Source: Naegleria gruberi (lineage: Eukaryota). Taken from it: a stretch of DNA of 64,000 nucleotides. Below, in pieces: positions 30,410 to 64,000 of the stretch (the first letter of the stretch is position 1; each line of letters starts with the position of its first letter). The notes under the pieces were generated by a model. That model saw nothing but the letters and a program-made list of their open reading frames with translations, was not told the origin of the DNA and did not search any database. Where the stretch lies: assembly GCA_000004985.1 (NCBI GenBank), contig GG738871.1, one strand, 5' to 3'. The position numbers were made by a program, and so were the translations under genes.

Positions 30410-33400
30410 ATGCGTGCTCTTCAAGTTTTGTTTTGCATAGCCTTGTTGATGGTGATGCTAGTAGATAATTCTTATTCCATTTACTCTAACTCTGCTTCTG
30501 TTTGTTCATGCTCTGGGAGTTGCCCATCCAGTTTTGGACAATTGACATATGATACTACCAATTCTGTGTTCTATACTAGAGGAGATACCAGTATTTATTC
30601 CTGCTCTAAAACACAAACCACAGGTAACAGTATTTCCAGTCTTGTTGGTAGTGTTCCATCGGTTGGTGATAATGTGGTTTTTACCACAGTACAAAGCAAA
30701 GGGGTTGTAATTTATGATCAATATAATGACGGGACAGAACAAGTTGTGACTTATTACATTGATGATACCTCCAGCGTAATCGATAATATTACCTTTACAC
30801 CTGGTGCAGTAAACCTCAAATCTGGAGATGGTAAGTTTTTTTAAAATGTTAATAACAATGTTGACATTTGACAATCAAAGTAATCTTGCTTTCCGATAGT
30901 ACCAACAATGAAATCAATTCTATTCAGATTGGAATTGGTACCCCAACCTTGTTATTTTCTGCCAATGCCCCTGTAAAGGATGTGGTTTTTTCTACAGATA
31001 TCTTGTTTGTAGGTCTGGAAAATCAAGTAGTTCTCTATAATCCTACTACTTTATTAAATATTGATACAACATTTTCAGGAGAAACTTTTGTTAGCATTCT
31101 TTATATGAGTGGTGTTGTGAATGATAAGGTATGTTTTGAAATGATGTGTTATTACAATAATGTATTAGATTTATCTTGTGGACAGTATCTCTGCTTCCAG
31201 TTTTGCAATTAGAAGAATATCTTTTTCTGGATCACATGAAACAGCAACTATTAAAACTATTTATACAACCACTTCTTCCATTAGTGGTATTTATGCAGTT
31301 AGTGATTCTGAAGTTTATTTCATAGAAGGCACGGAAATTAGAAAGTTACAATTCGATTGCACTGCCGGAGAAGTAGCACCAATTTGTGAAAATTGCCCAA
31401 CAGGCTACAGTTCTAGCTCACCTTTTGCAAGTTGTTTCCCTGTTTGCACAGGTGATTGTAATAATAATGGAGTATGTGTTGCTCCTGAGGTTTGCTCCTG
31501 TAATGCAGGTTTTAATGGAAGCAAGTGTGAAAACACAATTCCATTTTGTGGAGGTATTGCTGGAAACGAAACCAATGTTTGTAATAGTAGAGGTGTTTGT
31601 GTTTCCACTAATTTATGCGAATGTTATGACAGTAATAGTTATGGTGGAAACTTGTGCGAAACTGTAAAATGTTTTGGAAAGCTCAGTACAGATATTTTAT
31701 CTGTTTGCAGTGGTAATGGAACTTGTGATGCAGTTGACTTTTGTAATTGTGATGCTACTCACGGAGGAAGTAATTGTGATATTGTGAAATGTAATGGAAC
31801 CTTGGCAAATGAGACTTCAGTTTGTTATGGTCATGGTAAATGCATTAATGTAGATCTTTGTGACTGTAATTCAACTCACTGGGGTGGTGTATTTTGTGAA
31901 ACACCAAAATGTAATGGAATTCTAGCAACAGATACAAATGTTTGTAATTATCAAGGAGTTTGTTCAGGAGCTGACTTGTGTGCTTGTAATTCAACATATG
32001 GCGGTCAATTCTGTGAAATTCCAAAATGTAATGGAACAATGCAAGGTGATAATTCAGTTTGCTCAGGACATGGTTCATGTGTTGGTGTTGACCTTTGTAA
32101 TTGTAATTCAACTCACTGGGGAGGTAAATTCTGTGAAATTCCAAAATGTTTTGGAGTATTAGCCAATGAATCTAATGTTTGTTCAGGACATGGTTCGTGT
32201 ATTGGTGCTGATTTGTGTTCCTGTAATTCCACATATTGGGGAGACGAGAACTGTCAAACAGCAAAATGTAATGGTATTTTAGCAACAGATGCAAGTGCTT
32301 GTAATTATCAAGGAGTTTGTTCAGGAGCTGACTTGTGTGTTTGTAATTCAACATATGGCGGTCAATTTTGCCAAGTACCTAGATGCAATGGAACAATGCA
32401 AGGTGATAATTCAGTATGTTCAGGACATGGTTCTTGTGTTGGTGTTGACAAATGTAATTGTAATTCAACATCACTGGGGAGGTCAATTCTGTGAAATTCC
32501 AAAGTGTTTTGGAGTATTAGCCAATGAATCTAATGTTTGTTCAGGACATGGTTCGTGTATTGGTGCTGATTTGTGTTCCTGTAATTCCACATATTGGGGA
32601 GATGAAAATTGTCAAACAGCAAAATGTAATGGTATTTTAGCTACTCAAACAAATAGTGTTTGTTATGGACATGGTTCTTGTGTAGATGCCGATGTTTGTA
32701 ACTGTAATTCCACATATTGGGGTGGAGAATTCTGCAAATATCCAAAATGTTTTGGAATCTTATCCACAGAAGCAAATGCTTGTTCGGCACCAAACCAAGG
32801 TTTATGTGTTGATGCAGACACTTGTGCTTGTAACTCAACTTATTGGGGAGATGAAAAGTGCCAAACATTCAAGTGTAACAATATTCTTTCCACGTCAGAC
32901 TCTGTTTGTTATGGTCAAGGAGTGTGTGTAGCTGTAGATACTTGCGTTTGTAACTCAACATATGGAGGCCAATTTTGTCAAACACCAAAATGTAATGGTA
33001 CTTTGGCCGGGGATAACTTAGTATGTTCAGGACATGGTTCTTGTGATGGAGTTGACAAATGTAATTGTAATTCAACATATTGGGGAGGTCAATTCTGTGA
33101 AATTCCAAAATGTTTTGGAGTATTAGCCAATGAATCTAATGTTTGTTCAGGACATGGTTCATGTATTGGTGCTGATTTGTGTTCCTGTAATTCCACATAT
33201 TGGGGAGATGAAAATTGTCAAACAGCAAAATGTAATGGTATTCTGTCAACACAAACAAGTACTGTTTGCTACGGTCATGGTTCTTGTGTAGATGCCGATG
33301 TTTGTAATTGTAATTCCACATATTGGGGTGGAGAATTCTGCAAATATCCAAAATGTTTTGGAATCTTATCTACCGATTCTTCAACTTGTTCATTCCATGG

Positions 33401-36107
33401 CTTGTGTATTGATGCTGATTTGTGTTCATGTAACTCAACCCATTGGGGAGGTGAAAAGTGTGACATTCCAAAATGTAATGGAATTTTAGCAACAGATACA
33501 AATGTTTGTAATTATCAAGGAGTTTGTTCAGGAGCTGACTTGTGTGTTTGTAACTCAACATATGGAGGCCAATTTTGTCAAACACCAAAATGTAATGGTA
33601 CTTTAGCAGGTGATAGTTCAGTATGTTCAGGACATGGTTCATGTGACGGAGTTGACAAATGTACTTGCAACTCGACATATTGGGGAGGTCAATTCTGTCA
33701 AACTCCAAAATGTGATGGTATCTTAGCTTCCAATACTTCGACTTGTAATGGACAAGGTTCCTGTATCAATGCTGATGTTTGTATTTGTAATGATTACAAT
33801 CTTTGGGAAGGTAAATTCTGCCAAGTACCAATGTGTTACGGTAAACCACAAGGTGGATCTTCCACATGTAATAATGGAAATGGTACTTGTACATCTCCAA
33901 ATCACTGTTCCTGTAACTCTGGATATGTAGGCCCAGAATGTGAATATCCAGTTTGTTTCAATGTACCTAGCAATGACTCTTCAGTGTGTAACAATCGAAA
34001 CGGTACATGTATTTCACCTGATAAGTGTGCTTGTGAAAGTGGGTGGACTGGCGATAGTTGTCAAACACCAATCTGTTTCTCAATTTTGGGTAACTCTTCA
34101 GCTGTTTGTAGTCAAAGAGGTAGTTGTGTAGCTCCAAATTTTTGTGTTTGTAAGGATCATTATTATGGAGACGCATGTCAAAGAACTACTTGTTATGGTA
34201 TTGCTGATGATTCTAGTTCAACATGTTTTGGTCACGGTTCTTGTAGTGATTACAATACTTGTAATTGTTCATCAGGTTATGGTCCAGACAATTATTGTGA
34301 GCATCCAATATGTTATGGTTATTTAGCAAATGATACTAGAGTTTGTAACAATTCACGTGGTGTCTGTTTGAGTCCTGACGAATGTAGACCTTTGGACCCT
34401 GTATGTTTCGAAAAGGCAAAGAACGACAGTAATGTTTGCAGTGGTCATGGTAAATGTGTTGATTGGGATTATTGTGTTTGTAACACTTCAGATTATTATG
34501 GAGATCAATGTCAATATTGGAAATGTTTTACAAAGAATTACAACGCCTCAAATGTTTGTAATAACGGAAACGGTACCTGCTCATCTGTTAATAATTGTGT
34601 TTGCAACAGTGGATGGTATGGAAATGAATGTACAGTTCCAATGTGTAATGGAATTCTTGGTAATTCATCCCTCGTTTGTAACAATGGAAATGGTACCTGC
34701 TCCAAACCAGGTGCATGTCAATGTAATACTGGATATACAGGATCTGATTGTTCCATTCCAATTTGTTATGACAAATTAGCAAGTGACACAAGTAATGTTT
34801 GTTCAGGAAAGGGTTCTTGTGTTGCTAAGGATACTTGCTCTTGTCAAAACAAGTATACAGGTTATGAATGTCAATATGCCACATGTTATGGAGTTTCATC
34901 CAATTCTACAAGTGTCTGTAGTGGTAATGGTACATGTAACGGAGTTGATTCTTGTAATTGTTTATATGGTTATGGAGATTCTCAATGTAATGTTTTCAAA
35001 TGTTCCAATATTTTGGCTACTAGTAATAGCGTGTGTAGTGGAAGAGGTAAATGTTATGGAATTGATAAGTGTCAATGTGATACTGGTTACTATGGTCCTA
35101 ATTGTCAATATACCACTTGTAATGGTATTGCTGCTAACGACACTTCTGTATGTAATAGCAATGGTACCTGTACTGCTTATGAAACTTGTTCTTGCTCTGC
35201 TGATTGGTATGGCAAAAATTGTGACATTACTAAGTGTTACAATATCTTCTCAAATGATACAAGTGTTTGCAGTAGTAAGGGTAAATGTATCCTCAAGGAC
35301 AAGTGTGTCTGTACAGACATTAATTATGGTGGTTCTCAATGTGCCGATCCATACTGTTTTGGTTATTTGGCCGGAACTGTTGGAGTTTGTAGTGGAAATG
35401 GTCAATGTTTGGGAGTTAACTCTTGTAATTGTAATACTGGTTTCCTTGCCTCAAAGTGTCAATTCAAAACAATTAGTGGTATCTCTCTCACGTTCAATGC
35501 CTCTGCTGATTATGCCAATGAAACTCTCACCACCAAGGCAACTTTGTCAATTACTGACTCTTCATTCAGTACCTATTATGCTTCTACTAGCTTGAATGCT
35601 ACATTCTCATTTGTTTTCAATGGAGTTACATCAACATTCGACAAGATTCTCCCAGCCGGATCCAACAATGTTGAATTCATTCTTCCATTCTTCTACACTC
35701 AAAAAGGAACTGTTACCAGCTCTGTAACTCTCAAATTCACTGAAAGTACCACAACCATTACTGCAGGTCAAGCAACTGGTTCATCTTTAACCATTCAACA
35801 AAGAGTAATACCAACACCAACACCTACACCTATCAAATCATCACCAAAACCACAAGTTTCTCCAGCCAAATCCACCAACACTGTCAATCCAAAGGCCTCC
35901 ACTTCAACAACCACTAAGAGTGATTCCAATGTTGGAGGTGCCATTGCAGCTGGAGTCATTGTTCCATTAGTTGTAATTGGTGGAGGTGGTATCACTGCTG
36001 CCATCATTGCTGTTGTTGTCATTATGAAGAAGAAGGCCGCCACAGCAGCTGCCAGAGAACTTACCTATGCCACTCACTACGATGTTGAATTGGCTGAAGG
36101 TTACTGA
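30410..36107 (+). CDS. Giant type-I membrane glycoprotein. It has a signal peptide and N-terminal NHL/beta-propeller-like repeats. About 35 tandem cysteine-rich EGF/tenascin-like modules follow, then a Thr/Pro-rich stalk, a transmembrane helix and a short tail. Exons are 30410..30830 and 30881..31128, and a third runs from 31169 to 36107. One frame disruption lies near 32468.
   Basis: The signal peptide is MRALQVLFCIALLMVMLVDNSYS. Introns 30831..30880 and 31129..31168 are both GT-AG and frame-consistent. The repeating unit is PKCNGxLxxDxxVCxGHGxCxGxDxCxCNSTxWGGxFCE, six Cys per 39-40 aa. The C-terminus reads TPTPTPIKSSPKPQVSP..., then GGAIAAGVIVPLVVIGGGGITAAIIAVVVIM, then KKKAATAAARELTYATHYDVELAEGY. 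ORF 31178..32494 ends prematurely (..CNCNSTSLGRSIL*). The +1 frame (ORF 32289..36107) continues the same repeat consensus. Confidence 0.6.
31650..33720. repeat. Tandem array of units about 117-120 bp long, encoding 39-40-aa six-cysteine modules inside the surface-protein gene.
   Basis: Near-identical DNA units begin ccaaaatgtaatgg... or ccaaaatgttttgg... and recur with about 120-bp spacing, for example at 31901, 32021, 32141, 32261 and so on. The opposite-strand ORFs listed in this interval are antisense artefacts of the repeat. Confidence 0.7.
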
Positions 36108-46295: not shown

Positions 46296-48971
46296 ATGGG
46301 TAATAAGGCTGTGAAACAATTAGGAGATGTTCCAAATGGTGATTTGGATTTGTTATCCTCCACATCTTTTAGAGAGGATTTATTTGATCAATTTCCGACT
46401 GTGATTAGCAAGTTGGAGCTTGGTGTGCAAGAATTTGAACAATTTATTAAATTGTGTGATGATACTGGATCTCTTTATAAATCAATTGCTAAAAAGTTTT
46501 CAGTGAATAAGAAAACAGAGGCGTATGTGTTTGTTCAATCTCATGTTTAAAGTTTTTAATAATTTAGAAGATTACCAACAAATGTTGTGGAAAAACTAAC
46601 TGCTGGTTTGGAATCAATTGCATCGGGATACTTGACTTCTATCAAGGAAATGGATAAATTGGAATTAGATGCTGATGAAGTAAAGAAGGAATTGAATAAT
46701 TATATTAGTATGGCAAAGAAGGAAGAGAAACTTCTCAGTTCTAAACTAGTTGCTGTACGAAAGGAAGAAGAAAAAATCAGAGATAAATTCTTTGATGAGA
46801 AATTGTTTATTCAAGAATCAAAATCAAATCTACTCATTAATTTAAAGGATTTAACTGAGAAAAAGATACTTGATATTAATAAGAAGATTCAAATATCTGA
46901 AGAAAATGTCATTAAACTTGAAAAGGAAGCTGATGTGATCAAGAGAAAGGTGAAGGAGGTTAGCAGTGAATACGATCTCAAACTCAGAAATATTCTTTCA
47001 CACTTGGAATTTATTGATAGAAAGAGATTTAGATACATGAAGGATTTAACAAAACGATTTTCACAAATTCAAACTAATACTGCCAAGATGGTTATTGAAC
47101 AACACGGAGTTGTTGATACAAAGATTGAACTTCTCAACGAAGAGAATGAATTTAACGAGTATATTACATCCGTAAAATCAATCAAACCAACATCCAACAT
47201 TATTTCAAAAGATTCTGAACAAAAATTACTTGTCAGAATTGCTTCTCAAAGTTGGGACTTTATGAAATCAGCATCAGGCACTGTAAAGAAGACCTTTGAA
47301 TCTGGAGAAAAGTTTACAGATTCTTTATTCCCTCCAAAAAACATCTCAATAGATCCAGAAATGGAAGATTCAGTTCTTTGGATGAGAGCTGTCGATTTAC
47401 TTGGCCCATTTAAAATCATTAGCCCTGAAACTGTTCTGGCCTATGATATCAAACCACAAAAATCAATTACTGGATATGAATGGTTGACAAGTGCTTTGGA
47501 ATTCATTGCATCCAAGCCAGCACTTATTGAAAGAATATTTGTTGTCAAGACTCCTAATGATTTGGGAATTTTAGAGCTAAATATGTGCATTGGAGGCGAA
47601 TTTTATAAGATTACCATTGATGATTTCTTCCCAGCAAGCAGAGATGGAAATCCATTGTACTCCTCAACAAAGAGCAAAGACCTTTGGGCTATGGCTATTG
47701 AAAAAGGAGTTGCTAAGGTTTGTGGAACATACAAGAGAATGGCATCATCTTCATTCACAATTGGTGATGCATTTGAATTATTGACAGGTTGTCCAAGCTT
47801 TTACCAACCAGTTGGTATTTCCAACACCAACCACTTGTGGAAGCCAATTTCTAACTTTACTCAAAGCAGAAATATTACTTGCTGTTTAACTCTTCCTTTT
47901 TCTGAAACTACAGCCACTTCAATTGGTTTACACCCAGTTTATCCATATTATTTAGTGGGATGCTTGGAAATGAACGGAAAGAAAATTGTTAAATTGAAAT
48001 GTACTAGAGGACCAGCAGAGTGGAAGGGTGATTATTCTGAATCAGATAGAGTCAACTGGACTCCAGAATACAGAAATGCACTCGGTGTGGATCAATCAGC
48101 ACAAGATGGATACTTCTTTATGCCATTCTCAGATTTTTGCAAGTATTTTGATAGTATGTCATCTTTCAAATATGATCCACTTTTAGCCAGATTCCAACAT
48201 AGAATTCCATACCCAAGCCCTTCTGATTCAAGCCCTCCAACCAATACAGTCACAGAAGTTTCCATTGAAACAGATCAAAAGGAAGTTTACTTTGGTCTCC
48301 ACCAAAAACATGACAGATTCAAGGGTTCTCCAGCTAGATCTGCCATGGGTTTCATTGTTGTTAGAAAGCAAGGTAGTAAGATTGTTGGTGCCGTTAGATT
48401 ATCCACAAATCCTTGTAATTATTCTGAAGGATTATCTTTAAGAGCTGGAGATTATCAAATTATTCCAATTGTTGCACAAAATGCTATTTCTGTAGATGTG
48501 TTTGGATCTGGAAATGCACCAAATCTTACAGTTGTTGTTCATGCTAGAGGTAATGTTAGAATGAAAACTGCTGAGAAGGTATCTATCAAGATGACTCCAA
48601 TTCAAAAATCAATGGTTGAGCAATTCTTGTCTGGAGTTATTCCAAAGAGTCCTTCCCTTATTATGGAAGAAGCTAAGTCTGCTCCACAATCTCCATCCGT
48701 TGTTGGTAACTTTACACCATTACAGGAAGAAATAACTGAAGCAGATAACTTTTTGAATCAAGAAATCACTCCAGAAGTTACTGCAACTCAAACAATTGAT
48801 GAATCACTCCAAGAAGAAGACTCAACACAAGTCATTGAGAAGGAAGAACTACAAGCTGAACAAACCGTAGAAGAACCACACGTAGAAGAAACAACCGATT
48901 TGGCTCAAGTAAAGGAAGACGATAATGTTATTCCCTCTGACGACCAAGAGCACTTTGAAGAATTTGAATAA
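46296..48971 (+). CDS. Calpain-like protein (calpain-type papain fold), predicted non-catalytic. It has an N-myristoylation site and an N-terminal helical domain. Exons are 46296..46522 and 46568..48971; the intron is 46523..46567 (45 nt).
   Basis: The N-terminus is MGNKAVKQ. The calpain core aligns with human calpain-1: SLFPPKNISIDPE, WMRAVDLL, QKSITGYEWLTSA (the QGALGDCWLLAA position, with Cys replaced by Glu), FYKITIDDFFP, LWAMAIEKGVAKVCGTYKRM ([21 protein letters not shown]), GLHPVYPYY (the His region) and TRGPAEWKG (RNPWGEVEW, with Asn replaced by Gly). The C-terminal tail is acidic (EEFE). Confidence 0.65.
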
Positions 48972-49070: not shown

Positions 49071-52000
49071 TTATTTGAGGATAGTGTTGAGTTGCTCAGC
49101 AAGCTTTGAAGGGAAAAATCTCTTTGGTATTTCCAAAGAGTTGATCTTACCATGACCATCAAGCATATCAAATTCAAAAACATTAGCTTGGAGTGGCTTC
49201 TTGGATCCTAAATCAGTGAAATAGTTAAAGTCAACTAGAGGTTTGGATAAAACATTGTCCAGTGTTGGAATCTTCTTGCCAATGAGTTCTTCAATTTCGC
49301 GTTGAGAGAAGGTGGTATTTGAATACTCATCTGTTTCATAATTAGAATAGATATAGGCAATTTGTTGGACTGAAAGTTCTGGACAAATCTCTTGTCTTGT
49401 ACCTTCATCTTCAAGCAATTGCTTTTGAGCAATAACACAAATATCAGCTGCTTGTCTAGAAAGTGTAAAGTAAACTTGCAACTTTTCTTCATCAAAGTCC
49501 TCATTGTCATGGAATTGTTTTCTCAAAGATTGAACAACATTCTTAGAGTTGAACCAATTTTCAAGGAAGGCAACACTCATCTTAACTGAAAGACCCTTGG
49601 AGGCAGAAGCATCCTTGATAAAGTGATTGAATATAATTGAATCCAAACACATGGCAACATTTTCAAAAATGTGATTAACAACACGTTTGTCCAGCTTTTG
49701 TTGTTCAACACGTTGGTAGATTTCAGTAAGAAGTGAAATACACAATCTCATATCTGGACCACCATCTGTTGATTTGGATGAAGCTTGTTTTGGATTGAAC
49801 ACCGCCTTCACTAATCTGTCCTTCAAAAATTGGACAATCTTGGAACAGAGATTGAGATAGGCTCTAGCAAGAATATCAGTAAGAGCATCAGTAAATTCTT
49901 GCATGTCGGCAACATAAACTTCATCATCCTCAAGTACAGAGTATACTGGTGGTTCGGCCAAAATACGTTCTTCTTCCTTTGCCAAAATTGCTTGAACAGT
50001 GACACCTTCCATTGTTTCGAATGAGTGATGAACTTGATTTTCGTTTCCACTTGATTGATAGAGGTTCAAAAGTCTGTATAATACATTAACCCAATACATC
50101 ATCATCTCCTCATCTCTGGCATATCTATCTACAACGTAGGACAGAGCCTTGATAATATTTGTACAGAAGAATTTACTCGATTCTGGAGAGAACTTTAGAG
50201 TTGAGAGGAATAAAACCTTGGTTGGAGTTGGAACTTTAGAGCTTCCCAAATAGTCACTAGGTTGACTGTAGATGATTGCAGATTCAATAATGAACTTCTC
50301 TACATCAGAATTTTGCAATGATGATATTTGCTCTTTCAATTTCTTGGTTTCTTGTTCATTACCTGTCTTTGACTGTTTAAAATAATAATAATAAAAATAT
50401 TGGTTAGTAAGTTGAATAAAAATAAATAGAAAAGTGATAATTTGTTATCAGTTAGTTTTTAAGTTAGAAAAGTGTGAGTGTAAGTGTAAAAGTTAGAAAT
50501 GATATTTGCCTTTTGGTTTTCATCAAATTGTTTTTGAACTTTTTCAAGTCTTCTCTTGTCTTGCTCCAATTCATCAATTTGTTCTTCCAATTCGGTTATT
50601 CTGTTCTTTCCCTTCTTTAATTTGTTTTCCAATTCCGAGAATTTATCATCCATGTCCATAACTTTTTGGTTTAATTCCTCATTTTCTTCCTTCAACTTTT
50701 CAATTTCCTCCTCAAGTGCAAACTTTGACTTTTTATCCTCATTAACAGAATTCTATAATAATTAATAAGTTAGTACATAAAAATTCAAATTAAATAAAAA
50801 AACATAGTGAGAATTGTGGGTGATGTGTTAGTGTAAAAGTGTGTGTGATATTTGCCTTTTGTTGTTGTTCAATTTCTTCAATTCTTTCCTCAAGTTCTCT
50901 GATCAAAGTATCCTTCTCCTTGAGCTCATCTTCAGTATTCTTACTCTTTTCACTACTACCCTTCTTCAATTTTGCAATTTGATTACCAAGCTCATCAACT
51001 TCTTCTTGAAGTTGATTACGTTCTTTTTCTATCTTGGACAATTTAGAATCAACACTGTCTAGATCTTGTTCCAACTCTTCAATCTTTGAATCCTTTTGGC
51101 TATTGTCATCTTCCAACACTTGAAGTTGTCCAGAAAGCTTCTTGCATTCCATGGCTTGCTTTTTAGAATCTTCTTCAGCCTTTGCGACTTGTTGTCTGAG
51201 AGTTTCAAGTTCCTCAACCTTTGAATCAATAAGTTCATTCAATTTTATCACTTGGGTTTCACTCTCTGTAAGCTTCTTTTCTGTATCACCTAGTTTCTTT
51301 TCCGTTTCTCCAAGCTTCTTTTCGAGAGTTGTTTTTTGCTTCTTGACAATATCATCCATGGAAGCAGAATTCTTTGACAAACTTTCAATTTCTAAAATTT
51401 TTTCAGATAGGTCTTTTTCCTTTTCTTTGATCTTTTCTTCCAATTGCTGATTCTTGCTCTTGATAGTGGTAATCTCAATATCTAGATTCTTTCTCTCTTC
51501 TCTTAATGATTCGACAAGTTTGTTCAAATCCACTTCAGTTGACTATTTAAAGGTCATATGATATAAATTGTTAGTATGTTGTTTAAAATAAATGTGAAAA
51601 AAAAATGTGACATCACAGTTAGTACAAGTTAGTTCGCACCCAATAAAAAATCTAGCCTTTGGCTTTCATTCTTAAAGGGACAAATTGTTAGTTCTGGTTA
51701 GATACTTAAAGTTTTTGAAAAATATCCCGCACTCTTTGCAGAGATTGAGTGTGTAGTGTAAGATATGTACCTTTAGTTTTCTTGCCTCGGAATTAATATC
51801 AGAAACCTCATTAAATGTTTCTAAAACAGTAGAGAAGTGGCGACTAGCTTCTTGTTTCAGTTCCCCAATCGTGTTTTTCAAATGTGTAATTTCCTCAAGC
51901 AACAATTCTTCCACTTGCTTGCTAGCTTCTTTCAATTTCTTGCATTCTTCTTTCAAGTCTTCAACTTGTTGTTTGTAGCTCTCAATATCCTTATCTTTTT

Positions 52001-54957
52001 CTTCGCAGCTCTTCTCTATTTGTTTGGTTTCACTAATAGCAGCTTCTAGCTCTGAGGTAACATCTTCTACCTTCTTCTTATAAGATTCAAGGGATTGGTT
52101 GAGGTTCTCTAACTCTTGAGTAAGGTTTCTGTTCTTCTCTTCAACTTTTGAACATTTTTCTTGGTATTCTGAAAGCTTGTTTTCGATTTGAATAACAACT
52201 TCGTCAGTGTGTTGAGATGATTGCTTCTTGACATCTTCCACTCTTTCTTTAAGTTCAGAAATTTCTTTTTGGAGAGAATCTTGCATTTCTGCCTTGCTCT
52301 TTTCTGAGGATTGCCATTTTTGGGTGGCCTTTTCAACATCTTGTGAGTGTGCATTCTTTTCCTTCTTTAATTCATCCTTAAGACGTTCAACCTCATCAGT
52401 AACCTTCTTCAAATCTAATGCGAGTGCTTCCTTTCCTGATTTCAGCATTGACATCTTTGTTGAATATTCATTATCCTTGGAGAGGTATTCCTGTTTGAGG
52501 TTTTCCATTTGTTTCTTGAGAGATTCCTTTTCCTTGGTAGCAGCTTCCTCTTGTTTGTTGCGAGTTTCTATGGATTGTGTCAATTGAATGTTCAAAGCTG
52601 ATATCTTGGATGCCAAGTCATCTCTTTCCTTCTTGATATCTTGTAAATTTCTTTCCAATGATTCATTCTTTTCCTGTATCATAGTATTGGTATTTTGAAT
52701 TTGTACAATATTGGAGGTTAATACTTCGGATACAGCAGAAATCTCTTCCTTAACTTCATTTTCTAATGTTTGCTTAGCCTTCATAATACTCTCATCAGAA
52801 ATACCGTTTCTCATATTTTCAACAATATCAGAAAATGAGTCAGAGTGAGTAAGAATGCTTGAAAGCTCATCACTATTACCCAATTGGGTTGCTGTTTGAA
52901 GAAGGGTGTTTTGAATCTTAGTCTTGAGTGTTCTAAACTCCAAAAGACAAGAAAGAAGTAGCTCTCTATGCTTAGTTGCAGAAGATATTTCCTTACTTTG
53001 TTGAGAAACCAATTCAGCCAAACCCTTTCTTTCTTCCTTCAATCTATTAATGTCTGTTTCAAGTTCTTCAATTTCTACCTTTCTCTTTGTCTCTTTGGAA
53101 CTAAATTCTTTCTTTAGCTGATCAATCTCATTTTCATAACGAGTTTTGCTTTCTGACAAGTCTTTTTCATTGGTTACCTTAAATATATGAAGTTAGGAAT
53201 TATTCTATATCTCAATTATAAAAATGAACTTAACAGGGTGAGACTCTTTTCAGTTAGTTAGGTGTGAGTGTAATTAGTGTCAAGTGTACGTGTCGTGTGG
53301 GTTGATGTTTATACTTTACCTTTTGTGATTTCATATCTTCTTGAAGTTTTTCATTTTCTCTCTTCATTTTATCCATTTGCTTCTTGTCTGCAATGAGTTG
53401 TTCCTCATATTCCTTAGCTTGTTCTCTCATATTCTTGATTTCTTCTTCCAAATTTTGAACCTTTTCGTCATATTCGTATGAGAGGGATTGTTTTTGCTTT
53501 GAAGATGATGCACGACCATTTTCATTTTCTTCTTCAAGGTCCTTGATTCTATCCTTCAACTTTTTAATTTCTGTTTCATTCTTTTGAGCTTGCTTTTGCT
53601 TTAATTGAAGTTCAAAGAGCTTGCTATCAACTTCTTGTTGAGATTCCTGAGCCTTGTCTCTTTGTTTTATCAAATCTTCATTTTCTCTTTGGAGATTTTT
53701 AAGTTTTTCAACAGCTGAATCTCTTTCTTTTTGAACCTTTTTAAGCTATTAAATGTCAATATTCTCAATCTTTGTACACCAACTTACCAAATTAGTCTTG
53801 TCATTTTCTTTGAGAGTCTTGACTTGTTTCAAGAGCAATTTTACCTTTCTCTTGAGGTGATTAATTTGTCTTTCAAATTCAGCAGTATCTACATGTGATG
53901 AAACTTGAGCAGATTCATCAGTTTCAGTGTGCTGATTATTTTCTTCATCCTCATCTTCGGTTCCCTTTTCAACTTGTTCATCCTCTTCTTCTGGTTCTTC
54001 ATCGTGGTGTTCCTCAGGATGTTCTTCTTCGTCCTTTATTTGCTCTTCGATATCTCTTTCAATATCCTCTTCATTTACTTCAACTTCAGGTTCATGATGA
54101 TCCTCTTCGTCATAATTATGTTCCTCATGATCATTATAGTCGTGCTCTTCGTGTTCTTCCTCATCCTTATCCTCACCAATATCCTACAAATTGATTGTTA
54201 ACAATTACTACAATAATTAAACATACTTGATTTGTTCCTTCATCTTCATCGACTTCATCATTACCTCCAGTATAAGTACTAACAGCAGTAAAATCATCAT
54301 CACTTAATTTTGTTACAATCATACAAGTTCTAGTAGAATACTTACTTTGGATTTTGATCCTTTAAACATTTAGAATTGATAACAAGTTTCAATTTGGCCT
54401 TGCTACTATCCTTTGTTGGCATGTCTATTTCCTTTGTGGATGTCTTTTCAGAATCTTCATCTACAAACAATGCCAAATCCAAAGTTTCCTTCACAAGTGT
54501 ATTTGTTTTTCCATTCTTTCCTTTCTCTTCCAATGTGATTTGAAGATCTTTCTTTTGGAATTTACCCTTTTTAAAATAGAGAGTTCCATTGAATTTAAAT
54601 GTTCTATTCCAAATAATACGGGTACCTTCAATCTTGTTAAATTCGGTTTCACCCTTTCTCTTTTTTCCTCTTTTCCAAAATATCTATTATTGTGATTGTA
54701 TCATAAAACGTTGATGATATTATAATGATGATGACAGCGTTGTTGATGTTTGATAAGGAATTTAATGATGATGGGTATTATCATAGTGATGATATTTAAA
54801 TATTATGATGAAAATAATAAACATACAGCATAGGTACATTCATCCTTCTTCTTTTCCTTCACTTCGGTCAAGTGATCAATAGAAAGGTTAAATTGAAACT
54901 TGAAAGCCTCCCTATTCGTAACCTGTTGGGCTACTTTGCTTTGTAACTTTTTAAACA
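49071..54957 (-). CDS. Very large multi-exon gene. It encodes an NT-C2 domain, a poly-acidic region, a coiled coil of about 1,100 aa and a C-terminal DIL (dilute/myosin-V-tail-like) domain. At least nine introns.
   Basis: The start MFKKLQSKVAQQVTNREAFKFQFNLSIDHLTEV... and the next exon IFWKRGKKRKGETEFNKIEGTRIIWNRTFKFNGTLYFKK... fit the EHBP1/EEIG1-type N-terminal C2 pattern. An acidic exon follows (DIGEDKDEEEHEEHDYNDHEEH...). Four long coiled-coil ORF blocks come next: 53254..53673, 51672..53159, 50790..51533 and 50459..50695. The last ORF, 49071..50339, has DIL-domain character. Individual intron borders are only partly resolved. Confidence 0.5.
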
Positions 54958-55357
54958 TGATTAAATACTACTAAACACTATGGAGCAAGGTAGATTTCAA
55001 TCTGATAATAAATTAATGAATGATGTACAGGAGAGATTGATAATCTTCTACTACCGTTGGTTGCTAATTAATTTTTTTTAAATATTTTTTAAAAATGCAA
55101 AATTATCCACCAAGAATAGCCAAGTGACCAATTGCTTCTGGTAGACAAAATGCAACGGTCATCATGCGTACTGTGAAATTTAAAAAATCAAGCGCCAAAT
55201 GATTCTCTTTGCCCAATTGACAGTTTACTTTTTTATTCTGTACAGTTATTTATTATGGATGTTGTGAGGTTTCATTAAGAATTAATACCGCTTTTTATCA
55301 TTTAAATTTGTAATGTTAATGATATCATTGAATATTCGTCTAGACTCTGTTATTGAG

Positions 55358-57070
55358 TTATTTTTCAACTAATGGTATTAAGAAATGGTTTGGTATTTTA
55401 CAATCGAAATAGGTTTCAGTCATTCTGATTTTTCTGAGTTTTTCAAACTTTTCTCGTTTAGGAAAAAAGCAAAATCCGTTCTGTTTAGCAGCAATTTCGC
55501 TTATTGTTTCATCTTTACGATGCAATGGAGCATGATATAATAAAAATCCATTCTTTTTAACCAATTCCATTACAATATTTCGATTTTTTAAAATTAAAAA
55601 ATTCATTTCTTCTCTTCCAATTTTCACATTTGGATTACGGACTTTCCATAGCCTTTCGTCATTGGTCAACCTATCTGAAGCTCCAAAAAAAGACCCTTTA
55701 TATTTGACTGCTGCCTCAACAACCTCAATATCGTTCTTTAGTTCGCTTGCCTCAATAAGAACACTTTTTAAAATTGAATCATTTTTCAATAATCGAATAA
55801 TGAATTGCTTGTCTCTCTTCAGAGTTGGATCTAAGAGTCTCATAAAATTCTGACAATTATTGTTATTTTCCAAAAGGGATTCAATAAATTCTTTGTCATG
55901 TTGTAACTCATTAGAGGCAAATAGGAAAGCCTTACACTCTTTCTTTACAGCATGTGTTACGATAGATTTGTCATTAATCAACACATCAGATGCAGCTTCC
56001 AAAGCTGAAGGAAAATTTGATATGGCTTCCCATACAATTTCATAATCATTTCTGTAAATATAGGGACAATAACAAAGCACGCCCCCTGATTTTCTCACAG
56101 TTTGCAAAACCAAATCTCTGTCAATACTATCCTCTTTCATCTTTGGAAAAATATACTCTATTCCATTGACGGCCAATTGTAACATCTCTCTAACAAATAG
56201 ATCATCATTCTTTAACTCTTCAGATGCATACATCATTGCACTTCCATGGATTAATATTGATCTTTTTACAATTTCTCTATGATTTCGGAATTCAGGTTTG
56301 ATAAATTCAATAATATTTGCAAATAAAGAACATTCCAAAATAAAGTCAACATCTTGCTTCAGATCATCGGTTGCATATTTAAATTGATATCGATTTTTTT
56401 TCACACAATTCAAAACCAATTCTCTATTGGATTTTAGCTCATCAGGGAATGATTCTAGACATGAGAAATGTTTCAAAATTTCAATGTCATTATGAAATTC
56501 TTTGGGTAAAAGGTGTTTTAGATCGGTCGAATTCATTCTTGCTATCATCTCTTTATGCGTGAAAAACAATCTATCACTTGCCAATTCATCTAAATAGGGT
56601 AGTAATGTCTCTCCGATTTTTACTTGGTAAGGCTCAATATTAGAAAGGACGAATTCTCTATTATTTCTCAATTCTTTTGACGCAAATTGAAACATGTTTG
56701 GAAAAATCATACAACAATCTTTCACAATTTGTGGATTGTTTTTAACATGAAAAGGTGAATCTTCACATAGCTGAAAATAATATTCCAATCTGAGGTTATA
56801 TTCTAAATACCAATAAAAAAACTTTTGTGCTATTGGATTTTTCTTGCCATTAGAAATTACAAACTCAAAAACTTCTTTATCATCAGTAAATTCGAGAGGC
56901 AAAAATTTGAATCTGTCTGGGTTCTCAAAATGTAAACGTCTGTTTTCGAGATAAAGAAGAAATCCTTTTTGTTGAGTTTGAAATTTTCGGATTAAAAGTT
57001 TGACTTGATGAGAAATGCAATGATCAAAATCTATCAGATAGAGAGTGGTGTGATGTGTGCTTCCAGACAT
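55358..57070 (-). CDS. DUF4116 repeat protein (570 aa).
   Basis: Units about 35 aa long of the form ELKNDxEfVlxAVKxNGxxLxYASxEL recur, for example ELRNNREFVLSNI, ELKSNRELVLNCVKKN, FRNHREIVKRSILIHGSAMMYASEELKNDDLFVREML and ELKNDIEVVEAAVKYKG. This is characteristic of the DUF4116 family. Confidence 0.55.
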   Translation of the reverse strand: MSGSTHHTTLYLIDFDHCISHQVKLLIRKFQTQQKGFLLYLENRRLHFENPDRFKFLPLEFTDDKEVFEFVISNGKKNPIAQKFFYWYLEYNLRLEYYFQLCEDSPFHVKNNPQIVKDCCMIFPNMFQFASKELRNNREFVLSNIEPYQVKIGETLLPYLDELASDRLFFTHKEMIARMNSTDLKHLLPKEFHNDIEILKHFSCLESFPDELKSNRELVLNCVKKNRYQFKYATDDLKQDVDFILECSLFANIIEFIKPEFRNHREIVKRSILIHGSAMMYASEELKNDDLFVREMLQLAVNGIEYIFPKMKEDSIDRDLVLQTVRKSGGVLCYCPYIYRNDYEIVWEAISNFPSALEAASDVLINDKSIVTHAVKKECKAFLFASNELQHDKEFIESLLENNNNCQNFMRLLDPTLKRDKQFIIRLLKNDSILKSVLIEASELKNDIEVVEAAVKYKGSFFGASDRLTNDERLWKVRNPNVKIGREEMNFLILKNRNIVMELVKKNGFLLYHAPLHRKDETISEIAAKQNGFCFFPKREKFEKLRKIRMTETYFDCKIPNHFLIPLVEK

Positions 57071-59638: not shown

Positions 59639-62600
59639 ATGGTTACTGGAGGCAATCTTTCAGTATCTTGCTTTAAACAAGATGTAAAATCAGTTAGAGG
59701 CCTCATTGTCCTTCTCTTGTTGATTCTCTGTTTGACAACAATTGAGAAATGTTGTGGATATTACTACACAATGAATACTGTTGGTACCTTCACTTCTGGA
59801 ACCACCTTGTATCAAATGGACAAGTCCAAATTCTTCGCTAACAGATTCTACGTAGCAACAAGTGGAGGTCTTCAGTATTTCACTGTATCAAGTGGTGTGG
59901 CAAATCCAAGTAATTCTTATGTGTATAGTGGTGGGTTTCAAACTACCAGTATGGCAAATGTTGTTGTCAGAAGTACATCATCAAGTAAAGATGATGTTTT
60001 TTCTGGTACCATTAACACCTCCACTTGGAGGTATGGTTCAATAGCCAGTTCAACCACTACTGGTAATTCACTCACCAGTTGTGGCGTTATTGTTGCTGGT
60101 GTAAAACTCGATGCAAGCTCTACAACTTTTTCTGTGATTGGCAATGGTGTTGTGGGTACATTAACAATGACAACAGGTGGTAGTGCATCTTGTTCTGCAG
60201 TTACCTCATTTACAGGAGTTTCTGGCACAAGTACCACGCCATCTACTGATGGCACAGGTAGCGCAGCTACTGTTTACTCTAGTGGTACTCATGACATTAC
60301 CAAAAATTCAACATCTGGTGTAAGTATGAGAAAATTCAATTAATTAGATCTAACAACTGGCAGGTTTATTATTTTACTGAGGATTCAAAGATTAGAAAGG
60401 TTGTTTCAACTACTATCACAACTCTGGTAGGAGGAACTACTGGTACAGTGACAGATGGTACTCTCTCCTCTGCTACAGTTAAAAATCCAAGTTTCATGTC
60501 CATCTTGGGTGCAGGTGTAAGTTTTATTGCATTGTTATGATATATTAAACTGTTAACAGCTTGTATTTTCGGATACTGGTAGTAATAGAATTAGAGTTTT
60601 GGATACAGCCAATGAAGAAGTTGTTACTATTGCTGGTGGTGGCTCAACTACCCCATCAGGTACTGCTTCACTATCTGGTGCAGCAACAGGTTTTTCTTTA
60701 ACTAGCCCAAGAGGCATTTATGTGGACACTGATGACAGTATTTATTTTGTTGAAGGAATTTATGTTAGAAAGCTTGTCTATTCTTGTGAAGCAAATGAAA
60801 TTTATCAAGCAGGCTCATTCCCACCATGTGCTTGTAATACTACTGCTGGTTATGTGAGATCTGGAACTTCTTGCGTACCTACCTGTTCCAATTGTAATGT
60901 CAATCAAACATGTACTGGTCCAGAAACTTGTTCTTGTAAGAGTGGATATTCAGGAACAGATTGTTCTGCTTTTACCTGTTTTGGTGTAGCTCAAGATTCT
61001 ACATCTGTTTGTAATTCTAAAGGATATTGTGTTGCACCTGACACGTGTATATGTAGTGATACCTCCACTTTCTTTGGGTCAAATTGTAATGTGACTTATT
61101 GTAATTCTATTCCATCAACGAGTGGTAGTGTTTGTTCAGGACATGGAAGTTGTACTGATTATAATACTTGTACTTGTAGTGATACCAATTCATGGACAGG
61201 ATCTGATTGTGGAACACCTGTATGTGCAGTTGTGAGTGGAGGTGTTTGTTCTGGAAGAGGTAGTTGTACAGCTCCAAATATTTGCACTTGTAATGAACCA
61301 TCAAAATATGGTGGATCTTCATGTGAAATTCCAAAATGTAATGGAACACTTCAAGGCAATTCTGGTGTTTGCAATGGAAGAGGTTCTTGTATTGATGTTG
61401 ATACTTGTCAATGCACTGTTCCAACCTCTTGGGGTGGTTCATTCTGTGAAAAACCATACTGCTCTGGAATTTTACAAGGTGCAGCTGGTGTTTGTTCAAA
61501 TAGAGGAGTTTGTTCATCTCCTGATTCTTGTGTTTGTAATGAACAAACAAAGTATGGTGGTTCAAATTGTCAACTTGTCAAATGTGGAGGTTATTTGGAA
61601 ACAGACTCTGCTGTTTGTAACAAGAATGGTTCATGTATTGCTGTTGATACTTGTTCCTGTAATTCAAATTATGGTGGTTCAGATTGTCAATATCCAAAGT
61701 GTAATGGCATTGCTTCGAATAGTGGTAGTGTTTGTAATTCACAAGGATCATGTGTTGCACCAAATGTTTGTGTCTGTAATTCAAATTATGCTGGACCATT
61801 ATGCGAATATCCAAAATGTAATGGCGTAGCTTCCAATGATGCAAGTGTTTGCAATTCGAATGGAACTTGTACTGGTGTTAATACTTGTGTTTGTAATGTT
61901 AACTATACAGGATCATATTGTCAATATCCAAAATGTAATGGAATATCTTCCAATGATGCAAGTGTTTGTAATAACAAAGGTGGTAATTGTATTGCACCAA
62001 ATGTTTGTTCATGTAATTCAAGTTATACTGGTCAATTCTGTCAATTCCCAAAGTGTAATGGTATTGGATCCAATGATGCAAGTGTTTGTAATGCAAATGG
62101 TACTTGTATTGGAATTAATGTTTGTTCATGCAATTCAAATTATGCTGGTCCATATTGTCAATATCCAAAATGTAATGGTATTGCTTCAAATAGTGGTAGT
62201 GTTTGTAATTCACAAGGATCATGTGTTGCACCAAATGTTTGCGCCTGTAATTCAAATTATGCTGGTACATATTGTGATAAACCAAGATGTGGAACCTTTT
62301 ATAAGGGAGATGCTTCTGTTTGTAATTCGAGAGGTAGTTGTGATGCTGTTGATAGTTGTACTTGTAGTGATACATCTTCTTGGGGTGGTAATTTGTGTCA
62401 ATATCCAAAATGTAATGGTGTTCTTTCAAATATTGGAACTGTTTGTAGCAGTAGAGGTACTTGTCAATCTCCAAACAATTGTTCATGCACTGATCCAAAT
62501 TCATATGGTGGTTCATATTGTGAAAAAGCAAAATGTTATGGAATTCTTCAAGGAGATTCAAATGTTTGCAGTGGACATGGTACTTGTAGTGGTGTGAATC

Positions 62601-64000
62601 AATGTTCATGCAGTGCTGGATATGGAGGTGAACAATGTCAATATCCAAAATGTTTCAATATTTTGAGTAATGAAACAACAGTTTGTAACAATAGAAACGG
62701 TACTTGTACTGCACCTGACACTTGTTCATGTAATAATGGATGGACTGGAAGCAAGTGTGATGTTGCCATTTGTTTTTCAATTCTCTCCAATTCAACAAGT
62801 GTTTGTTCAAACAAGAGAGGTAATTGTGTCACACCAGATAATTGTGTTTGTAAAAGTCAATATTCAGGTTCTCAATGTGAATATACCACTTGTTCTGGAA
62901 TAAGATCAGATCAACATCGACAGTATGTTATGGAAATGGTCAATGTATTGATTATTTACTTGTAATTGTACAACTGGTTATGGACCATCCAATGTATGTC
63001 AATATCCAATTTGTGGTGGTTATTTAGCAAATGATACCAGAGTTTGTAACAATTCAAGAGGTGTTTGTTCCAAACCAAATACATGTAGACCATTAGATCC
63101 CGTATGTTATGGTAAAGCTCAGAATAATTCAATGGTTTGCAGTGGAAATGGAGCATGTGTTGATTGGGATTATTGTGAATGTAAAACTGGTTTCAATGGA
63201 AATGAATGTCAAAATTGGGAATGTTATGGAAAGAATTATACCAACTCAAATGTTTGTAACAATAGAAATGGTACCTGTTCATCTGTGAATAATTGTGTTT
63301 GCAACAGTGGATGGTATGGAAATGAATGTACAGTTCCAATGTGTAATGGAATTCTTGCTAATTCATCTCTCATTTGTAACAATAGAAATGGTACCTGCTC
63401 CAAACCAGGTGCATGTCAATGTAATACTGGATACACAGGACCTGATTGCTCCATTCCAATTTGTTATGGAAAATTAGGCAAGTGACACAAGTAATGTTTG
63501 TTCAGGAAGAGCAGAATGTATTGGTTATAACAAGTGTAATTGTGACACTTCCAAGTATAGTGGTTCACAATGTGAATATTTCAAATGTTTTGGTATTCCA
63601 TCAAATGATGCTTCAGTTTGCAGCAGAAACGGAACATGCTCTGGAGTGAATCAATGTTCTTGTAATTATGGTTATGGTTCTTCAAATTGTGACATTTTCA
63701 CATGTTCAAACGTTCTTGCCACCGATTCGAGTGTTTGCACTGGAAAGGGTGTATGTTATGGAATTGACAAGTGTTCATGTGATTCAGGATATTTTGGATC
63801 AAATTGTGAAATTATCTCCTGTTATGGAATTCCAAAGTCCAACAATACTGTATGTGGAGGAGTTGGTGAATGTTCACAACTTGATACATGTGTTTGTGGA
63901 AGCAATTATAGAGGATCAATGTGTGAATTATCTTACACCTCTTCATCTCAAGCAACACTTCAATTCAATAATACGAATGAATATGTGAATGAACAATTCA
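59639..64000 (+). CDS. Paralogue of the 30410..36107 cysteine-rich surface protein: signal peptide, NHL-like N-terminal repeats and EGF/tenascin-like modules. Exons are 59639..60319 and 60364..60516, and a third runs from 60560 to beyond the window end. The frame is disrupted at least three times between 62880 and 63490. It is 3'-partial. It may be a decaying paralogue, or the disruptions may be sequence errors.
   Basis: Introns 60320..60363 and 60517..60559 (GTAAGT...AG) are frame-consistent. The product carries ...LYFSDTGSNRIRVLDTANEE...IYFVEGIYVRKLVYSC... and about 20 six-Cys modules. DNA from 62990 onward is nearly identical to 34290 onward of the first gene. Relative to that paralogue it has single-base indels near 62925, 62950 and 63478, each followed by a stop in the main frame. 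Confidence 0.45.
61290..62660. repeat. Tandem array of units about 120 bp long, encoding six-cysteine modules in the second surface-protein gene.
   Basis: Units beginning ccaaaatgtaatgg... or ccaaagtgtaatgg... recur at about 120-bp spacing. The antisense ORFs here are artefacts. Confidence 0.65.

Follow-up and report, generated by a model that had tools for sequence, protein, structure and literature searches.

The window analyzed here is a 64,000-nucleotide (nt) stretch of Naegleria gruberi DNA (assembly GCA_000004985.1, contig GG738871.1), AT-rich eukaryotic sequence with a GC content of ~31 to 39% and short introns. On its minus strand, positions 49071 to 54958 hold one gene of nine exons and eight introns. 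Its 1,668-residue product carries, from the N to the C terminus, an NT-C2 domain, an acidic His-rich tract, a long Pro-free coiled-coil rod, and a globular tail domain (GTD) of the myosin V/XI type.

Gene structure and orthologous loci

Nine stop-free open reading frame (ORF) blocks join into a spliced ORF of 5,007 nt (1,668 residues plus stop) that begins with the ATG at 54958 and contains a single, terminal stop codon at 49073 to 49071. The exons, assembled from ORF blocks and splice sites, lie on the minus strand at 54958-54827, 54683-54346, and 54302-54227 (exons 1 to 3); 54183-53788, 53745-53320, and 53177-51771 (exons 4 to 6); and 51542-50856, 50752-50510, and 50372-49071 (exons 7 to 9, exon 9 including the stop codon). 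The introns measure 143, 43, 43, 42, 142, 228, 103, and 137 nt in order; six are of the GT-AG and two of the GC-AG type, all eight junctions are in frame, and the AG acceptors are canonical. An initial annotation of this window, made from the sequence alone, had given the span as 49071 to 54957, correct at the stop codon end and one base short of the ATG; it had also called for at least nine introns, where eight suffice to join the nine blocks. ACTAAC-type branch point motifs occur in most introns of the gene.

Residues 1 to 1654 of the predicted protein align collinearly, at 38% identity (BLASTP and MAFFT), with residues 1 to 1719 of Willaertia magna KAL9645710.1 (ABK040_003442; 1,730 residues). 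Gaps fall at none of the eight exon junctions in this alignment, and regional identity reaches 54% in the exon 9 region and ~70% in the C2 head. A 16-nt alternative for intron 2 (acceptor ctactag) is in frame but implausibly short; the 43-nt intron yields the junction NDDDFTAV, which agrees with the Willaertia protein. A closer orthologue, found on a metagenome contig of 6.3 kb in the ENA (ERZ27315067:k141_1544857, hereafter L001), is also collinear. Its end domains are 62 to 74% identical to ours, and it has the same ORF-block pattern and intron positions.

The two GC-AG introns are intron 7 (50753-50855) and intron 8 (50373-50509), both on the minus strand. The donor of each reads AAG/GCAAATATCA, the slash marking the exon-intron boundary. 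By sequence inspection, neither intron has an in-phase GT donor, and both junctions are gap-free against Willaertia. L001 has AAG/GCAAATATCT (AAG/GCAAAT) at the intron 7 position and AAG/GCAATTATCT (AAG/GCAATT) at the intron 8 position (the ~4183 and ~4549 sites of L001). The two introns thus have near-identical donors, kept in position and sequence in a related species.

The orthologous locus of Naegleria lovaniensis (PYSW02000006.1, 5205-10493; L002) is annotated as two adjacent genes, an NT-C2 gene of 660 residues and a DIL gene of 830 residues. This annotation favors the possibility that the blocks in our window are likewise two or more adjacent genes, joined only on paper. The two N. lovaniensis frames, however, overlap by 64 nt (L002 7704-7767), lie one frame apart near an A-run, and are read through by P0004, a related Naegleria-type protein of 1,396 residues, at the residues where the split falls. 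Because of this overlap and read-through, the split probably reflects a one-base indel in the assembly or an annotation error, or else a recent frameshift. With in-frame junctions, canonical AG acceptors, a continuous Willaertia gene model, and shared intron positions in L001 also against it, an artifact of this kind is extremely improbable in our window, and the locus is confirmed to encode one real gene. Further, transcriptome assemblies of Heterolobosea sp. BB2, Euglena gracilis, Percolomonas, and Cavostelium contain single transcripts with both NT-C2 and GTD, so that elsewhere one message carries the combination.

Domains of the predicted protein

The NT-C2 domain (54357-54913, minus strand) spans residues 16 to 153, across intron 1, and matches PF10358 at 65.1 bits against a Pfam cutoff of 25.2, covering profile positions 2 to 139 of 143. 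A C2 β-sandwich fold is predicted for the N terminus of the Willaertia orthologue, used here as an ~70% identical proxy. The head (residues 1 to 156) has a net charge of +14, with basic clusters at K3/K4/K8 and in the strand W47-KRGKKRK-54 (K48-R49-G-K51-K52-R53-K54). R49 and G50 do not vary among 11 family members, K52 hardly does, and basic character is common to the whole family both ahead of strand 1 and in the WKRGKKRK strand. Sequence matches of this region in the PDB, to hydroxylamine oxidoreductase (E of 0.008) and flavivirus NS5, are at chance level.

Immediately after the NT-C2 domain, encoded by exon 3 and the beginning of exon 4, comes the acidic His-rich tract (53875-54347, minus strand; residues 157 to 285). 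It consists of 48% Asp plus Glu, 9% His, and 3% Lys plus Arg, for a net charge of -58, and is probably disordered. The orthologues share its composition at low sequence identity: the L001 tract has 48% Asp plus Glu and 10% His, and the Willaertia tract (174 residues) has 33% Asp plus Glu. A Thr-rich motif lies directly behind the NT-C2 domain (~54227-54302; residues 157 to 182). In most family members it reads TTMTDA(T/S)E and here FTAVSTYTGG, followed by an acidic run (family alignment columns ~180 to 200). This stretch may be a conserved linear motif or a phosphorylation site.

The rod (50313-53874, minus strand) extends over ~970 residues, from ~286 to 1255. It contains no Pro, an absence with a P of ~2e-12 given the 2.7% Pro in the rest of the protein, and the Willaertia rod (980 residues) is likewise Pro-free. 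We scored heptad periodicity with a simple in-house measure of hydrophobic residues at a/d positions against shuffled controls, rather than with a published predictor. Most 40-residue bins from residue 281 to 1200 exceed the 95th percentile of shuffles, with dips at residues ~441 to 480, 521 to 600, and 641 to 680. Pfam gives only weak matches on the rod, all to coiled-coil families. If the coiled coil is continuous, the rod would be ~144 nm long at 0.1485 nm per residue.

Exon 9 (coding positions 49074-50372, minus strand) encodes residues 1236 to 1668, the end of the coiled coil and a complete GTD of the myosin V/XI type. The DIL core (49329-49670, minus strand; residues 1470 to 1583) matches PF01843 at 52.4 bits against a cutoff of 24 (E of 6e-14; profile positions 2 to 104 of 105). 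An AlphaFold2 model of the last 433 residues has a predicted local distance difference test (pLDDT) score of 88.5 and a predicted template modeling (pTM) score of 0.87. Its top 36 Foldseek matches in the PDB are all GTDs of myosin V, myosin XI, Myo2, or Myo4, aligned over ~410 columns (~350 to 460), and its structural neighbors include GTD complexes with Rab11, melanophilin, Spir2, and MICAL1, which illustrate the usual ligands of the fold. Structural alignments to myosin GTDs give template modeling (TM) scores of 0.57/0.66 at 13 to 18% identity. The exon 9 sequence alone finds the MyoVc GTD at an E of 3e-8. A 30-member family profile searched against the PDB finds the myosin XI-K GTD at 6e-43 and the MyoVa GTD at 2e-39; values for XI-K and MyoVa/b/c range from 6e-43 to 4e-35, over ~340 to 350 of 383 positions, and from 6e-43 to 3e-28 once Myo2p is included. 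Profiles and model together indicate that the C terminus is a complete two-subdomain helical GTD, with homology reaching well beyond the DIL core.

The architecture proposed in the initial annotation is upheld. The N terminus has an NT-C2 domain of the EHBP1/EEIG1 type, the tract behind it is acidic and rich in His, and the C terminus has a dilute (myosin V tail-like) module, with both domain families scoring far above their curated cutoffs in the suggested profile search. The heptad-repeat rod is also real, at about 970 residues instead of the ~1,100 first estimated. As had been suggested, the protein is motor-less: the Pfam scan finds no motor domain, and the gene upstream encodes an unrelated protein of 570 residues with seven DUF4116 repeats (55358-57070, minus strand). 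This neighbor ends 400 bp away, which leaves no space for a hidden motor exon. A DUF4116 gene is also found near the N. lovaniensis locus (L002 12847-14283), which could be remnant synteny or chance within an expanded family. Since the four architectural claims hold and no motor, CH, or catalytic domain is present, a motor-less cargo adaptor, as first suggested, is the natural reading, and the one we infer.

Conservation along the rod bears on other readings. Against Willaertia, the two ends of the protein are mostly 50 to 83% identical and most of the rod only 13 to 40%, lower still against P0004. Where the rod is closest to the head, an island that spans intron 4 (53518-53829, minus strand; residues ~301 to 390) is 57 to 60% identical to Willaertia; its identity to P0004 is 13% at residues 301 to 330 and 40 to 57% over residues 331 to 390. 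In its conservation, the protein looks like two functional ends with a spacer between them, most of the rod evolving fast. The island itself may be a dimerization trigger or a partner-binding site.

If it binds a partner, that partner could be a motor. The rod, and the island in particular, might recruit dynein, kinesin, or myosin in the manner of BICD or Hook, so that the protein is carried along filaments while its GTD or C2 end holds the cargo. The long coiled coil, in which a single proximal segment is conserved while the remainder drifts, fits such a role, and activating adaptors, too, are generally laid out with a terminal cargo-binding domain. In the rod, however, the Pfam scan revealed neither a known motor-binding motif nor a family of that kind, and the island could equally be a dimerization trigger site; we consider motor recruitment unlikely. 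Alternatively, lateral association of the rods could build filaments or a lattice, perhaps at the cortex or on flagellar rootlets, leaving the end domains as mere attachment points. The rod is indeed very long, charged, and Pro-free, it gives weak matches to crescentin and intermediate filament rod profiles, and the long form is limited to the Naegleria/Willaertia/window clade of amoeboflagellates. These matches are nevertheless far below the cutoff (28 versus 100 bits) and typical of any coiled coil, the rod is poorly conserved, unlike assembly-competent rods, and family members with short rods exist, so a structural role of this kind is highly doubtful.

Relatives and neighboring genes

To find relatives, sequence searches with a word index are too insensitive: exon 9 retrieves one protein and the 30-sequence GTD profile two. 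An exhaustive HMMER scan of 1.84 billion representative sequences with exon 9 yields only 65 proteins at an E of ≤1e-3, many of which, including several environmental sequences, have the NT-C2…GTD layout. Carriers include Acrasis kona KAL0488697.1 (named "C2 NT-type domain-containing protein"), Heterolobosea sp. BB2, Percolomonas, Euglena gracilis, Carpediemonas membranifera KAG9396312.1, and the amoebozoan Cavostelium. The short-form relatives have 575 to 1,000 residues, mostly 650 to 850. The long-rod form (1,400 to 1,730 residues) is seen only in the N. gruberi window, L001, Willaertia, and Naegleria-type sequences. Rod length thus varies widely within the family, consistent with a spacer-like rod.

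The protein itself has no entry in the protein collections searched. The family is already present in public, unreviewed, and uncharacterized entries and is widespread in protists, and because its architecture exists there, the gene is not categorically new. The initial annotation did not recognize the domain order from characterized proteins, and our literature check agrees: it found no study of an NT-C2 plus DIL/GTD architecture, a check that did not extend to the 2010 paper by Zhang and Aravind that reportedly defined NT-C2. The order is not unique, however, since several lineages of protists show it again in uncharacterized proteins and transcripts. Scanned at full length against Pfam, Willaertia KAL9645710.1 matches neither NT-C2 nor DIL at an E of ≤0.001. 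Scanned apart, its ends give both domains at 59 and 47 bits, so the full-length miss is no sign of absence and is probably a filter artifact of a coiled-coil-rich sequence. The miss is a warning for pipelines that assign domains automatically to long proteins rich in coiled coil.

Related GTDs also occur behind other heads. Willaertia KAL9645609.1 and N. fowleri XP_044563553.1 combine a GTD with a CH domain and a coiled coil and have no NT-C2 domain, and in environmental sequences (P0022/P0033/P0035 and P0029) a GTD of the same subfamily is fused to a RasGAP or cyclic nucleotide-binding domain. By sequence, the subfamily is one of motor-less proteins with swapped heads. The CH heads in place of NT-C2 fit the reading of the protein as an anchor head, a rod, and a cargo-binding tail.

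A further alternative starts from the same GTDs. The tail could compete with, or take over from, a class V/XI-like myosin for a Rab or adaptor, parking cargo at a membrane domain defined by the C2 head. The homology to motor GTDs over their full length and the presence in heteroloboseans of several motor-less GTD proteins, with NT-C2 or CH heads, would suit such a competitor. The low identity to myosin GTDs and the small number of relatives given above mark the GTD as distant, for which reason shared ligands are uncertain, and a GTD-bearing myosin in this organism is an assumption. We regard this competition as quite unlikely.

On the 3' side of the gene a calpain family cysteine protease gene (46587-48971, plus strand; Peptidase_C2 at 130 bits) runs convergently and ends 99 bp from the stop codon. 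Its product has an acidic C-terminal tail and an N-terminal extension of ~240 residues that is coiled-coil-like by eye only. Farther away, two large ORFs at 32289-36107 and 60599-62965 (both plus strand) encode dense EGF or teneurin-type EGF repeats (Pfam scores of >170 bits); the amoeba presumably secretes their products or displays them on its surface.

Proposed function and comparison with known systems

We give about an even chance to the proposal that the protein serves this heterolobosean amoeba as a rod-shaped tether or adaptor without a motor. Two chains would form a parallel coiled coil of ~140 nm. The paired C2 heads would dock on a membrane rich in acidic phospholipids, of the phosphatidylinositol 4,5-bisphosphate [PI(4,5)P2] type as for EHBP-1, or on the cortical cytoskeleton, and the paired GTDs, like the tails of myosin V, would recognize a Rab-GTP or adaptor carried by a vesicle or organelle. 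If the head docks and the tail binds in this way, it follows that cargo of the GTD type would be held at a fixed distance from the membrane and not moved. More speculatively, the acidic tract (net charge of -58) may bend back onto the adjacent basic C2 head (+14) as an electrostatic autoinhibitor, possibly one sensitive to pH or metals.

Several considerations weigh against this proposal. Dimerization, parallel register, and continuity of the rod are assumptions, and because the heptad signal is weak at residues 441 to 480, 521 to 600, and 641 to 680, the rod may be hinged and its reach shorter. The C2 fold was modeled on the Willaertia orthologue rather than on this protein, lipid binding by the NT-C2 domain is predicted from its likeness to EHBP-1, and the GTD ligand, whether Rab or adaptor, is putative and taken from myosin V complexes. 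In the plant protein RPG, the NT-C2 domain is dispensable for localization and function (PMC9931111). For the whole family, function is read from sequence and structure models rather than from experiment.

A broader extension of the proposal is speculative and improbable. Proteins of the NT-C2–rod–GTD type might be ancient motor-independent organelle tethers, possibly as old as the last eukaryotic common ancestor, that use the myosin V cargo code without the motor. The Naegleria/Willaertia clade would then have lengthened the rod to ~140 nm to serve a task of its own, for instance to keep membranes of the contractile vacuole or the secretory pathway at the cortex or to organize membranes during the switch from amoeba to flagellate, and the acidic tract would inhibit the basic C2 head in a way that responds to pH or metals.

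Membrane traffic in Naegleria is poorly known. Should the protein be a tether, protists would have reused the GTD for the static capture and positioning of organelles, and this model amoeba would offer a tractable candidate for holding vesicles or organelles near the cortex. At a practical level, a likely split-gene annotation in N. lovaniensis is corrected and conserved GC-AG introns are documented for the lineage.

The closest counterparts are Willaertia KAL9645710.1 and L001, which have the same order of NT-C2 domain, acidic tract, Pro-free rod (~980 residues in Willaertia), and GTD; they come from other species, and both are uncharacterized. In the short protist NT-C2…GTD proteins, the N-terminal NT-C2 domain has a W/Y-[KR]-RG-[KR]-K motif and is likewise followed by acidic sequence, then by a short coiled coil, and finally by a GTD from the same subfamily. 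Their rods, however, are only a tenth to a fifth as long and their GTDs 17 to 30% identical, and they may be paralogues rather than orthologues.

Plant RPG resembles the protein in its N-terminal NT-C2 domain followed by ~1,000 residues of coiled coil and differs in having no GTD; it localizes to puncta at the trans-Golgi network/early endosome (PMC9931111). The GTD, in turn, is shared over its full length with the class V/XI myosins (MyoVa/b/c, Myo2p, and XI-K), in which it is also preceded by a coiled coil. With no match to Myosin_head or IQ in Pfam at an E of ≤1, the protein falls outside these classes. Myosin V globular tails are the best-understood readers of the cargo code in actin transport. 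Here such a reader is attached through a very long rod to a C2 head predicted to be of the membrane-binding type, with no motor, and relatives whose head is a CH domain of the actin-binding type occur in the same amoebae.

Dilute domains are also found outside myosins in the motor-less animal proteins afadin/Canoe, RADIL, and Rasip1. There the DIL domain is combined with RA, FHA, and PDZ domains, none of which Pfam detects in our protein, and NT-C2 and a long rod are absent.

EHBP1 and its Caenorhabditis elegans counterpart EHBP-1 share the N-terminal NT-C2 domain followed by an acidic region, and EHBP1 ends in a Rab-binding coiled-coil region. In C. elegans, the NT-C2 domain of EHBP-1 alone targets PI(4,5)P2 endosomes, and PI(4,5)P2 binding needs the basic patches RRLRR, before strand 1, and HRRRK, in strand 2 (PMC4894640). 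The basic patches of our protein would correspond to these sites by position rather than by direct alignment. The CH and bMERB/DUF3585 domains that are hallmarks of EHBP1 were not found in it by Pfam, its C-terminal module is instead a GTD of the myosin V type, and its rod is far longer. By analogy, its working mode may nevertheless be closest to that of EHBP1, a membrane-binding C2 head joined to a C-terminal module for Rab-type binding. The gene thus combines two known kinds of protein, the EHBP1-like NT-C2 adaptors and the motor-less DIL proteins.

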